A stretch of 11,002 nt of DNA, from the IMG/VR virus record IMGVR_UViG_2541047680_000013. One strand, 5' to 3'. The translations under genes and the position numbers were made by a program. Origin of the DNA: a virus (lineage: Duplodnaviria > Heunggongvirae > Uroviricota > Caudoviricetes). Within the stretch, counting starts at the first letter, position 1. The number at the start of each line of letters is the position of its first letter. The notes under the pieces are model-generated. The model saw nothing but the letters and a program-made list of their open reading frames with translations, was not told the DNA's origin and searched no databases. Shown here in pieces: positions 2,696 through 3,838 of the stretch.

Positions 2696-2962
2696 ATGCA
2701 AGCTGTTTTTTCTTCCCCGTCTCCCGCCCCTGTGACGCCACTGATGCCGCTGCCGGACATCACGCAGGAGCGTTTTTTACGTCTGCCGGAAGTGATGCAC
2801 CTGTGCGGCCTGTCACGCTCGACCATCTACGAACTCATCCGTAAGGGGGAATTTCCGCCGCAGGTGAGTCTTGGCGGTAAAAATGTGGCCTGGCTGCACT
2901 CTGAAGTCACCGCATGGATGGCCGGGCGCATTGCCGGACGCAAACGGGGGTACGACGCATGA
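2696..2962 (+). CDS. vis: AlpA-family phage transcriptional regulator / excisionase-like protein (Vis-like, 88 aa)
   Basis: 88-aa ORF with an AlpA-type HTH signature ([48 protein letters not shown]). RBS GAGG 7 nt upstream. Size and position match P4 orf88/vis. Confidence 0.8.
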
Positions 2963-3558
2963 TGATGCCTGTTCTGCAAAAACTTCCTTTTTCTGGCTTG
3001 CCTTTTTCCGGCATTTGCGGATATAGTTTTTCCGCTGCCGCAAAATCGGCAGCCGGGCGTGGAAACCCGAGTATGTTATCGGCGACATATGACGCGCCAT
3101 GCGTCTTTTTTTGTGTCGCAATCAACGCCACAGAGCGCCAGATTATGGTGTGGTGTGTGGTCAGTCGAGCAAATGGCACTCCGTGCATTCTGCCCGCGTC
3201 CGCTCATTATACCGCAGAGTCAATGGTAGTTCAGGCGGGGCAGCCTCCGGGCTGGCCGGTTTCCGATAACGCCGGTATTTCCACCCCCGTCTGGGCTATC
3301 GCCATCGAGCGTGGAAACTCCGGCGATAGCGTCATTTACGCTGTTATCGGAGGTTGCCTTATGGCTACGACCCTTACCCCCTCACACCCTGAATTTGTCT
3401 TTGTGTTTGCGGCTGTCCGTCGCGCAGACCGTCATCCCCGTATCTGTATGCTTCGCACCGTCGCCGGTGATGAACGCAGCGCCCGCCGTTCCCTTGTCCG
3501 TGACTATGTGCTCTCCCTTGCTGCCCGTCTGCCGGTGGTGGAGGTGTCCCGTGCGTAA
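2959..3558 (+). CDS. Left-operon ORF with uncertain start (199 codons from the ATGATGATG at the vis stop); hypothetical
   Basis: Open frame from the ATGA overlap with the vis stop to TAA at 3558. It overlaps the candidate promoter and leader, so the real start may be internal. In-frame nested start at 3361. Confidence 0.3.
2998..3027 (+). promoter_or_regulatory. Candidate sigma70 promoter (possible PLE equivalent)
   Basis: -35 TTGCCT (2998-3003), 18-bp spacer, -10 TATAGT (3022-3027), located just downstream of vis. Confidence 0.4.
3091..3112 (+). terminator. Attenuator/terminator-like hairpin in the left-operon leader
   Basis: GACGC (3091-3095) / GCGTC (3101-3105) stem followed by seven T (3106-3112), about 60-80 nt downstream of the candidate promoter. 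The stem is short, so this is weak. Confidence 0.3.
3361..3558 (+). CDS. Small nested ORF (65 aa); possible Kil/Icd-like cell-division inhibitor
   Basis: ATG at 3361 preceded by GGAGG (3349-3353), in frame with the longer ORF. Sequence [43 protein letters not shown]... Functional call is from memory of Icd-like annotations and is uncertain. Confidence 0.4.
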
Positions 3559-3838
3559 TAAAAAAGCCCCTCAGACCGTCTCAGCGCGTCATGACGCCCG
3601 TGAACACCTCAGCATTGAGGCTTACCATAAGCTCAACCGCGCCAGCGCCGTATCCCAGTTTGTTGGGGGTGATTTGATTCACCGTGAACTCTCCGGCCTC
3701 CATCAGCTCTACATTCCGCATATTTTCAGCTACCTGAATGAAGATATTGATTTTGTGCTGAATGAGCTGAAAGCCAAAGGCCTGTGCCGCGATTTTCTCG
3801 CCCAGCAGAAAGACCGGGGAGACAGGACGCATGTTTGA
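3551..3838 (+). CDS. Left-operon protein of 95 aa (epsilon-sized; possible antirepressor-like), hypothetical
   Basis: GTG start at 3551 with a strong RBS GGAGGT (3540-3545). The start overlaps the preceding stop (GTGCGTAA) and the stop overlaps the next start (ATGTTTGA). Alternative ATG at 3506 lacks an RBS. Confidence 0.6.

Follow-up and report, generated by a model that had tools for sequence, protein, structure and literature searches.

Evidence for a P4-type antisense-RNA immunity region with its own set of recognition boxes in a P4-like satellite prophage of Escherichia coli

Does the DNA between vis and epsilon in this P4-like prophage encode immunity of the P4 type, and with which specificity? 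P4 immunity was studied by Ghisotti, Deho, Forti, Sabbattini and Briani between 1992 and 2002. The question was addressed here in the window, that is, the whole stretch of 11,002 nucleotides that was analysed (IMG/VR record IMGVR_UViG_2541047680_000013), for which an earlier note, made from the sequence alone, had proposed a P4-like RNA immunity system in the left-operon leader. The results showed that window positions 105-7446 are collinear with the P4 satellite phage at 97% nucleotide identity, and that the immunity region at 2959-3560 is collinear with its P4 counterpart at 96.7% identity (96.7-97.4% across comparisons), every part of the P4 cI/seq region being placeable. The region is flanked by vis on its 5′ side and by epsilon on its 3′ side, which is the left-operon position as in P4, and the P4 annotation around the homologous region reads vis, 'cI', epsilon and alpha. 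The vis gene (2696..2962, plus strand; P4 orf88), already named as the upstream neighbour in the earlier note, encodes an AlpA-family excisionase/regulator (Pfam Phage_AlpA, 74 bits) homologous to P4 ORF88, whose annotation is 'excisionase and transcriptional regulator'.

Rfam searches of the immunity region returned isrK, c4-a1b1 and C4 in the expected order, all on the plus strand and each above its gathering threshold, and no match on the minus strand of the region. Twenty homologous loci were submitted to the same search, one of which (L016) is truncated and holds the 3′ part only; the leader/C4 pair was present in 19/19 complete loci. The IsrK-like RNA corresponds to the seqA RNA of P4 and the C4-like RNA to its CI RNA (PMC3632133; PMC4825925). 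The collinearity with P4 and the Rfam families for the seqA leader and the CI RNA thus bear out the proposal of P4-like RNA immunity, and we are highly confident that 2959-3560 is the P4-type antisense-RNA immunity region of an E. coli P4-like satellite prophage, most likely working as in P4. The system is an already known one, covered by Rfam and by the P4 literature, and the present instance brings no new mechanism; it departs from P4 itself in the recognition boxes and is otherwise ordinary.

The promoter scan detected a sole sigma-70-like site within 2400-4000, namely TTGCCT-18-TATAGT at 2998-3027 on the plus strand, with the −35 hexamer TTGCCT at 2998-3003, an 18-nt spacer and the −10 hexamer TATAGT at 3022-3027. 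This is the candidate that had been picked out before, and the '-10 consensus' annotated at 2367-2372 of X02534 maps to window positions 3022-3027, coinciding with the −10 of the predicted promoter PLE. Since the Rfam isrK match begins at 3034, the PLE transcript is predicted to start near that position. The leader RNA ('seqA RNA', IsrK-like; 3034..3112, plus strand) matched isrK (RF01394) over its full length at 3034-3111 (74.7 bits, gathering 50), as well as c4-a1b1 (RF03163; 51.5 bits, gathering 46.7). The fold of the leader (z = −2.4) consists of hairpin 1 (3034-3053), hairpin 2 (3054-3069), a single-stranded linker holding seqA, and GACGCGCCATGCGTC plus a T7 tract at 3091-3112. Both the terminator scan and the fold identified 3091..3112 (plus strand) as an intrinsic terminator with the stem GACGCG/GCGTC followed by T7, which we take to be P4 t1 from its position between PLE and cI; the P4 terminator t1 is said to have been described by Briani et al. 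in 2000.

The conservation of boxes, helices and frames was evaluated in a set of 23 Enterobacterales loci. Pairing reached 99-100% in hairpins 1 and 2 and in the terminator stem, with compensatory changes in hairpin 1 and in the t1 stem; the latter was 100% paired, and in 5 loci its basal G-C pair was replaced by C-G. A third hairpin at 3071-3090 was paired only 39% and is therefore not a conserved structure. Of the earlier picture of a leader with several short hairpins and a T7-ended stem, hairpins 1 and 2 and the terminator are thus conserved, but not this third hairpin.

The immunity RNA itself belongs to the same operon as had been supposed, but it does not lie in the T7-ended hairpin leader: the cI gene, encoding the C4-family antisense CI RNA, maps about 110 nt downstream, at 3219..3306 on the plus strand. 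The CI RNA matched Rfam C4 (RF01695) with 75.6 bits (gathering 45) and folds into a cloverleaf-like core at 3225-3300 (MFE −44.7 kcal/mol, z = −4.3), whose three helices were 99.7-100% paired in the 23 loci, with compensatory changes. Six recognition boxes were mapped in and around it, all on the plus strand. Upstream of the CI RNA, box a1 (TGGAAA, 3060..3065) sits in the loop of hairpin 2 as the complement of a′ in the CI RNA, and seqA (box b1, GTTATCGG, 3075..3082) is the upstream target of seqB. Within the CI RNA, seqB (box b′, CCGATAAC, 3263..3270) occupies the large loop and box a′ (TTTCCA, 3278..3283) a single-stranded junction. Downstream, box a2 (TGGAAA, 3312..3317) is the target of a′, and seqC (box b2, GTTATCGG, 3343..3350) overlaps the Shine-Dalgarno sequence of kil, GGAGG at 3349-3353. 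SeqB pairs 8/8 with both seqA and seqC. Counted together with its complement, GTTATCGG occurs 3 times in the 11-kb window, all within the immunity leader, against 0.27 expected, and 0/200 shuffled windows reached 3 occurrences. In the predicted fold, a hairpin at 3318..3352 (plus strand; CUCC...GGAG) carries seqC in its 3′ arm and sequesters the kil Shine-Dalgarno sequence, and the MFE structures of 23/23 homologues likewise have the Shine-Dalgarno sequence paired; the atypical terminator t4 may lie in this hairpin region.

A long frame with an internal start and a strong ribosome-binding site had been noticed in the region and read as nested genes following the leader. The frame extends over 2959-3558 and encodes 199 aa, and its internal ATG at 3361, preceded by the GGAGG, opens a frame of 65 aa (3361..3558, plus strand) identical to P4 Kil in 65/65 residues and matching NCBIfam phage_ICD_like (76 bits), that is, kil, an Icd-like cell-division inhibitor. 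By analogy with P4, kil would be the first gene translated from PLE transcripts and its product would be toxic. The nesting was thus recovered, but eta (2959..3558, plus strand), the in-frame extension of kil, does not follow the leader: its ATG at 2959 lies upstream of PLE, overlapping the vis stop codon TGA (ATGA), and the frame traverses the whole RNA region, crossing the leader and the CI RNA gene. PGAP labels the eta/kil frame as Icd-like protein. Overlying kil, the homologue of timm, a P4 Rho-dependent terminator located at X51522 8365-8209 (PMC3177188), was mapped by P4 alignment to 3361..3517 on the plus strand. It shows only 2 substitutions relative to P4 (3369 and 3480) and is C-rich and G-poor (C/G = 1.61), and we regard 3361-3517 as a putative Rho-dependent terminator. 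The next gene, epsilon (3551..3838, plus strand), encodes the helper derepression protein according to Pfam Derepression (170 bits) and the P4 annotation, and starts with a GTG inside the 3′ end of kil. Three minus-strand ORFs (2813-3121, 2907-3188 and 3076-3207) had no support from Rfam or from the other features examined and were treated as chance, as was a match to Atu_L1 at 7316-7455 (20 bits against a gathering threshold of 60, E = 0.38); ARAGORN found no tRNA or tmRNA in the window.

Analysis of the boxes across the 23 loci revealed that their complementarity is maintained while their sequences change. In 23/23 loci, a1:a′ formed 6/6 pairs, through 4 box types, and seqA:seqB formed 8/8 pairs, through about 10 sequence types. 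Taken jointly, 100% of the 322 cells of these two interactions were paired, compared with 76.5% in shuffles and 36-53% when the boxes were slid; 10/14 pairs varied on both sides, with a covariation score of 0.713 versus 0.223. For the second interaction, the MAFFT alignment shifted seqC by one column between types, and the boxes were therefore extracted by position, seqC being defined as the octamer whose last two letters are the GG of the kil Shine-Dalgarno sequence. The interactions seqB:seqC and a′:a2 were then jointly 99.6% paired, with a covariation score of 0.733 versus 0.214; a2:a′ was 6/6 paired in all sequences, and 99.2% of the seqC cells paired with seqB. A larger collection of 103 elements, parsed from two collections plus the window and P4, contained 39 distinct six-box combinations, nearly all of them fully complementary. 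Whole-molecule duplex energies between CI RNA and target were rejected as a measure of specificity: they ranged from −24 to −32 kcal/mol for cognate and non-cognate pairs alike, swamped by unstructured G+C-rich pairing, and were thus replaced by box-level pair counts on conserved flanks.

Comparison with P4 located the divergence of the window element largely at these boxes. Within 3033-3369 there are 47 differences from P4, 29 of which fall in or at most 2 nt from the six boxes (14 inside the boxes), and a further 9 lie just 3′ of seqC, between the kil Shine-Dalgarno sequence and the start codon. The b boxes seqA/seqB/seqC read TTCACAGG/CCTGTGAA/TTCACAGG in P4 versus GTTATCGG/CCGATAAC/GTTATCGG in the window, and the a boxes a1/a′/a2 read TGAGAA/TTCTCA/TGAGAA versus TGGAAA/TTTCCA/TGGAAA. 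Since all six boxes differ from P4 with mutual compensation, a different immunity specificity is predicted, and from its sequence the window element is expected to be heteroimmune to P4, either completely or in part. If G-U pairs are counted, P4 seqB would form 6/8 pairs with the seqC of the window and the a boxes 5/6, so that partial cross-immunity is possible.

In P4, the CI RNA causes premature termination through pairing with seqA upstream and with seqC downstream (PMC3632133; PMC4825925). The scheme proposed here for the window combines what the sequences show (the layout of the parts, the homology and a complementarity that is conserved and covaries) with termination and processing steps that would proceed as described in the P4 literature. 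Constitutive transcription from PLE would yield a leader transcript carrying, in order, a1 and seqA, t1, the CI RNA gene, a2 and seqC, kil, epsilon and the replication genes. From this same transcript the CI RNA, with a core at about 3225-3300, would be excised; in P4, the CI RNA is made by processing of the PLE transcript by RNase P and PNPase. In the prophage, the loop (seqB) and the junction (a′) of the CI RNA would pair with a1/seqA and a2/seqC on nascent PLE transcripts. The upstream pairing would favour termination at t1. The t1 hairpin forms in the minimum-energy fold whether or not seqA is free, and therefore the sequence alone gives no account of how CI pairing might raise t1 termination. 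The downstream pairing would cover the kil ribosome-binding site and prevent kil translation, and the untranslated, C-rich kil RNA would allow Rho termination at timm (3361-3517). As a net outcome, the toxic Kil, epsilon and the alpha primase would remain unexpressed. On the other side, transcripts from the regulated upstream promoter PLL would be translated from the vis-coupled eta ATG at 2959 through the leader, and this translation would block both RNA pairing and Rho loading, allowing PLL transcripts to escape immunity.

The database labels of the long frame point to another reading, in which immunity would be conferred not by an RNA but by a protein repressor encoded in the eta frame, formerly called 'cI' or 'Ash' (ORF137). 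P4 RefSeq names the frame 'transcriptional repressor, cI gene product', Pfam Phage_ASH (PF10554) matches eta residues 22-146 with 79 bits, and PHROGs 6928 and 1743 carry the label 'transcriptional repressor'. However, the stretch matched by Phage_ASH is precisely the one that encodes the leader and the CI RNA. Kil itself is free of the 23 amino-acid changes relative to P4, all of which precede it, and the 13 that cluster in three blocks at seqA, seqB/a′ and seqC look like by-products of compensatory changes at the RNA level; the three-way nucleotide covariation has no protein-level rationale. P4 immunity reportedly survives frameshifts and stop codons that spare the RNA structure. Given also that the literature assigns P4 immunity to an RNA (PMC4825925; PMC3632133), a protein repressor is very unlikely for this locus. 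The same frame could be doubted altogether, eta being no real gene and its openness a by-product of a G+C-rich structured RNA from which kil alone is translated. The protein-family signal of the eta-specific part comes only from families built on the same region, and the eta amino-acid sequence varies freely where the RNA boxes vary. Yet the eta frame is open in 22/23 homologues, with 1 stop in total across these diverged elements, whereas the two alternative frames contain 56 and 102; the spacer alignment gaps of 6, 9 and 39 columns are multiples of 3 and preserve the frame, and the eta ATG overlaps the stop codon of the upstream gene in most lineages. We consider it improbable that eta is not a gene. 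The frame pattern agrees with selection for translation through the region, not for a particular protein, and selection of this kind through the eta region was reportedly proposed by Forti et al. in 1999.

The leader invites a further reading, under which the t1-terminated RNA at 3034-3112 would be a trans-acting regulator like IsrK of Gifsy-1, serving as a sponge for the CI RNA or as a translation activator of the long transcript in a dual sRNA/mRNA switch, and adding a layer beside the CI RNA. Its full-length isrK match is consistent with such a role, and a1 and seqA, perfectly complementary to the CI RNA, could titrate it. IsrK regulates its own read-through mRNA in trans, and its structural homologue in P4 is the seqA RNA (PMC4825925); moreover, transposon-insertion sequencing (TraDIS) of S. 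Typhi classified the IsrK-like elements of P4-like prophages as required (PMC3632133). The P4 literature, as cited, has seqA as a cis target, however, and hairpin 3 is not conserved, and we view this added layer as rather unlikely.

The region was also compared with known systems. It shares with the P4 immunity region the position between vis and epsilon, the promoter, the leader hairpins, the terminator, the CI RNA fold and the nested kil/eta genes, and differs from it in all six boxes, pairing the a-type TGGAAA with the b-type GTTATCGG. For ImmI of phages P1 and P7, Citron and Schuster are said to have reported in 1990 that the a′ and b′ boxes of the c4 antisense RNA target a1b1 and a2b2, with icd and ant lying downstream. 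The window region and ImmI have in common the C4 RNA family and a two-box logic, with an upstream target set and a downstream set over the ribosome-binding site of an Icd-like gene, and in both systems specificity alleles define heteroimmunity. P1-like phages align to 3220-3400 with about 70% identity, in stretches annotated Icd-like. An antirepressor is encoded downstream in both, ant in P1 and epsilon in P4, the latter acting on the repressor of the helper. P4-type elements differ from ImmI in having a leader with t1 and a read-through frame, eta, and in being satellites, whereas P1 and P7 are autonomous phages; according to the literature, P4-type elements act by terminating transcription of the replication operon prematurely, whereas ImmI represses the translation of ant alone. 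No ant gene follows the Icd-like ORF in the window element, and this element is a P4-type satellite; the region would operate in the manner of ImmI but falls outside that group.

The leader at 3034-3111 matches IsrK/STnc1160 of Salmonella Gifsy-1 (RF01394) over its full length, and a processed stable RNA downstream of IsrK is common to the Gifsy-1 and P4 systems (PMC4825925). Gifsy-1 IsrK is reported to activate, in trans, the translation of the long isoform (orf45-anrP), whereas the leader of the window is, as far as known, a cis target of the CI RNA. Among the N15/phiKO2-type linear plasmid prophages, phiKO2 shows about 76% identity over 3011-3330, in a stretch annotated 'transcriptional repressor | terminator', indicating that the leader-plus-C4 module is shared with phiKO2; the surrounding genes are different. 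A full map of RNA and protein elements is now available for the present prophage, and the labels 'Ash family', 'transcriptional repressor' and a single long 'Icd-like protein' misdescribe what is mainly an RNA locus.

The box repertoire suggests how specificity might diversify in this family. About 100 elements yielded 35 different (a′, seqB) combinations, each of the five a-types was seen alongside the most frequent b-type, and the a and b box types combine freely. Each box would be present in triplicate per element (a1/a′/a2 and seqA/seqB/seqC), with the copies interleaved over about 290 nt. Free reassortment of such interleaved a and b boxes goes beyond one crossover and would imply concerted three-site evolution, which might occur, for example, by gene conversion or template switching between the repeats. 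We tentatively propose, as a possibility short of an expectation, that immunity specificity in the P4 family is a combinatorial two-box code (a-box × b-box) shaped by concerted three-site evolution and by selection for heteroimmunity. A systematic survey of P4-like satellites makes no mention of the immunity RNA, and a search among the IMG/VR loci for two satellites from the same genome found no genome represented twice. Complete E. coli genomes carry up to 4 P4-like elements each. If the two-box code is true, the window element (TGGAAA plus GTTATCGG) would be a natural specificity swap on a 97% P4 backbone. Compensatory swaps of six boxes on a near-P4 backbone represent a ready-made system for orthogonal antisense specificity, and they could be used to ask how many pairs, or which box, set heteroimmunity among co-resident satellites. 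The present specificity allele is a common one, with an exact match in 96/5426 complete E. coli genomes.

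Comparison with satellite phage P4 (X51522/NC_001609) showed 97.4% identity over window positions 105-7446, and the P4-matching part carried the gene order psu, delta, sid, vis, 'cI', epsilon, orf151, orf106, alpha and crr. The stretch 2900-3900 was found at a coverage of at least 80% in 970 of 5426 complete E. coli genomes, in every case on the chromosome. Judged from this match, the gene order and the chromosomal occurrence, the window is a P4-like satellite prophage of E. coli. The region 2959-3560 is flanked by vis (2696-2962) and epsilon (3551-3838), exactly as the immunity region is in P4.

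A promoter scan revealed TTGCCT-18-TATAGT at 2998-3027 as the only sigma-70-like site in 2400-4000, and its -10 coincides with the -10 annotated in the P4 record X02534 (window = X02534 + 655), which bears out the promoter proposed in an earlier note. That note had also described a hairpin leader ending in a stem plus T7 tract, and folding and a terminator scan agreed with it: RNA from 3034 forms hairpins followed by GACGCGCCATGCGTC and T7 at 3091-3112, the intrinsic terminator t1. The plus strand matched the Rfam families isrK (3034-3111, 74.7 bits) and c4-a1b1 (3021-3073, 51.5 bits), both above gathering. A scan with the eta protein, at one genome per species, afforded 23 homologous loci (Klebsiella, Kluyvera, Atlantibacter, Mangrovibacter, Pantoea, Erwinia, Mixta and others), across which hairpin 1, hairpin 2 and the t1 stem were 99-100% paired with some compensatory changes, the base of the t1 stem being swapped from G-C to C-G in five of the 23. 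A third hairpin, predicted in the window's leader at 3071-3090, was only 39% paired across these loci, so the upstream target box seqA normally lies in a single-stranded linker. Since the t1 hairpin was present in the MFE fold regardless of seqA pairing, the modelled sequence does not explain how this pairing would promote t1. Within the leader, conservation is lowest in the spacer between t1 and the CI RNA (3113-3218), where the eta frame was always kept despite gaps in other genera.

Rfam placed a C4 antisense RNA on the plus strand at 3219-3306 (75.6 bits, above gathering), whose fold has two hairpins on a long closing stem (-44.7 kcal/mol, z = -4.3); the three helices were 99-100% paired across the 23 loci, again with some compensatory changes. 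In P4-like prophages, the IsrK-like RNA corresponds to the seqA RNA of the P4 literature and the C4-like RNA to CI RNA, and CI RNA is processed from the leader transcript and pairs with seqA upstream and seqC downstream, resulting in premature termination (PMC3632133; PMC4825925). Therefore, the immunity RNA is located outside the hairpin leader. The RNA-mediated, P4-type immunity that the earlier note had assigned to the left-operon leader was supported by the Rfam families and by collinearity with P4, whereas the RNA itself lies ~110 nt downstream of the T7 tract.

Alignment to the P4 region, a check which that note had proposed, allowed the target boxes to be placed and revealed 47 differences between 3033 and 3369, clustering at six boxes: 29 were inside or at most 2 nt from a box (14 within the boxes proper), and a further nine were just downstream of seqC, between the kil Shine-Dalgarno (SD) sequence and start codon. 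The boxes a1 (3060-3065) and a2 (3312-3317) read TGGAAA in the window and TGAGAA in P4, and a' (3278-3283) reads TTTCCA and TTCTCA, respectively. Likewise, seqA (3075-3082) and seqC (3343-3350) are GTTATCGG in the window and TTCACAGG in P4, and seqB (3263-3270) is CCGATAAC and CCTGTGAA. In both elements, seqB is exactly complementary to seqA and seqC, and a' to a1 and a2. Counting its complement, GTTATCGG occurred three times in the 11-kb window, all within this region, against 0.27 expected. The kil SD is overlapped by seqC, and a hairpin at 3318-3352, in which CUCC pairs with GGAG of the SD, was found likewise in the MFE fold of all 23 homologues. This hairpin may be the atypical terminator t4 of P4, which Briani in 2000 reportedly located between cI and timm, the Rho-dependent terminator.

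The sequence comparisons show the anatomy of the region and a two-box antisense interaction with two target sets that covariation maintains. The IsrK-like and C4-like RNAs occurred in the same order in 19 of 19 complete loci among 20 searched, the twentieth (L016) being truncated to its 3' part alone. On A1, the MAFFT alignment of the 23 leaders, all of the 322 cells for a1:a' plus seqA:seqB were standard pairs (100%; shuffles 76.5%, slid registers 36-53%), and 10 of the 14 pairs changed on both sides (covariation score 0.713 vs 0.223). MAFFT moves seqC by one column, so the seqB:seqC and a':a2 pairings were scored on boxes taken out by position; these were 99.6% paired (0.733 vs 0.214). Such RNA-level covariation contradicts the reading that the immunity factor is a protein repressor encoded in the eta frame, which survives only in database labels, namely the RefSeq name 'transcriptional repressor', Pfam PF10554 Phage_ASH ('Ash protein family') over eta residues 22-146 (window 3022-3396), and PHROGs 6928/1743, also labelled 'transcriptional repressor'. 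PF10554 and these PHROGs match the translation of the RNA leader and CI RNA gene, and they appear to derive from an early annotation that wrongly took the P4 immunity RNA locus for a protein gene (ORF137, 'ash/cI'). By analogy with IsrK, it is possible that the short leader RNA acts in trans as an extra layer.

The long frame with an internal start behind a strong RBS, which the earlier note had read as consistent with nested genes, was confirmed: 2959-3558 is open for 199 codons, and the internal ATG at 3361, with GGAGG at 3349-3353, yields a 65-aa product identical to P4 Kil at 65 of 65 residues and matching NCBIfam phage_ICD_like with 76 bits. PGAP labels the whole frame Icd-like protein in a strain whose element is 99.3% identical. 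An accidental eta frame is unlikely, as it contained one stop across the 23 elements vs 56 and 102 in the other frames, and 22 of them keep it open all the way from upstream of the leader as far as kil. The spacer gaps of 6, 9 and 39 columns are all frame-keeping, and in most cases the eta ATG shares bases with the stop codon of the preceding gene (ATGA at 2959 in the window). All 23 amino-acid differences from P4 are upstream of Kil, 13 of them in three blocks at the RNA boxes. What is conserved thus appears to be translation through the region and not a particular eta sequence. Forti et al. are said to have reported in 1999 that kil (65 codons) is the first gene translated from PLE, the promoter at 2998-3027, that eta, with its start upstream of PLE, is translated from transcripts of the regulated promoter PLL alone, and that translation prevents termination at timm; conserved translation through eta agrees with this account. 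The sole frame-breaking change among the 23 elements was in L015 (Apirhabdus apintestini CP138906), with 6 rather than 7 T in the t1 T-tract; this may reflect a sequencing error, or the element may be naturally eta-null.

The P4 timm fragment has been mapped to X51522 8365-8209 (PMC3177188). Its homologue, window 3361-3517, covers the opening 157 nt of kil, differs by two substitutions and has a C/G ratio of 1.61. By inference from P4, CI RNA in the prophage would pair with a1/seqA to increase termination at t1 and with a2/seqC to block the ribosome-binding site of kil; left untranslated, the C-rich RNA would then undergo Rho termination at timm, leaving kil, epsilon and alpha silent, while PLL transcripts, translated as eta, would escape this control.

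Analysis of box repertoires identified 4 a-types and ~10 b-types in the 23 loci. Searching IMG/VR for exact matches to a CI stem pattern contributed another 119 loci, and the 103 parsable elements (both collections, the window and P4) comprised 5 a'-types, 17 seqB 8-mers and 35 (a', seqB) combinations, with full complementarity in nearly all. The window's combination recurred in two other elements, L045 and L111, and an exact copy of its 41-nt CI segment was present in 96 of 5426 complete E. coli genomes (of P4's segment, in 206); its specificity allele is therefore common, not rare. Window seqB formed 4/8 pairs with P4 seqC, and P4 seqB formed 6/8 with window seqC, wobbles included (a boxes 5/6); these cross-pairing counts suggest, rather than prove, heteroimmunity between the two elements. 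L109 (IMGVR_UViG_3300014749_000058) combines seqA and seqC of type CTTCAAGG with a CCAATAAG-type seqB, so that only 5/8 pairs form at either site; it could be a recombinant, an immunity-defective ('virulent-like') satellite or an assembly chimera. L034 (IMGVR_UViG_2660238469_000004) has chimeric boxes (a1 TGAGAA, a' and a2 of the TAGGAA type) and a single-base difference between seqA and seqC, seqA pairing being kept through G-U, and may be an intermediate step in switching specificity. An exact match to the P4-type CI stem was also present on 40-60 kb IMG/VR phage contigs (e.g., L027, L038, L043 and L046), and the RNA module may be common to non-satellite phages. Over the pattern-match loci as a whole, 41 matches could not be parsed, 31 of them because a P4-type leader or a2 context was missing.

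The region belongs to the well-characterised P4 immunity system, of which it is an ordinary, already known instance, both RNAs being curated Rfam families. It works like the c4-icd-ant module of P1/P7, with which it has in common the RNA family, the use of two boxes and two target sets, and an Icd-like gene; alignments to P1-like phages show ~70% identity. The window element is not part of that module, because it is without an ant gene and sits on a satellite backbone. Beyond P4 itself, the only additions are the non-P4 specificity allele and the family-wide repertoire of a x b combinations. The one large survey of P4-like satellites consulted does not discuss the immunity RNA.

At the other end of the element, the Rfam family Atu_L1 scored 20 bits at 7316-7455, a region homologous to the P4 crr repeats (gathering 60, E = 0.38), almost certainly by chance. 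The 99.3% identity to the E. coli PK6 element ended at 7756, and 7602-7757, in which neither ARAGORN nor Rfam called a tmRNA, was 89.7% identical to a phage LLS stretch annotated 'tmRNA pseudogene', so this segment is probably the ssrA-type attachment site and right end of the satellite. Different DNA follows at 7757-11002, of which 10431-11002 was 100% identical to prophage PPwrbA_EC3734.
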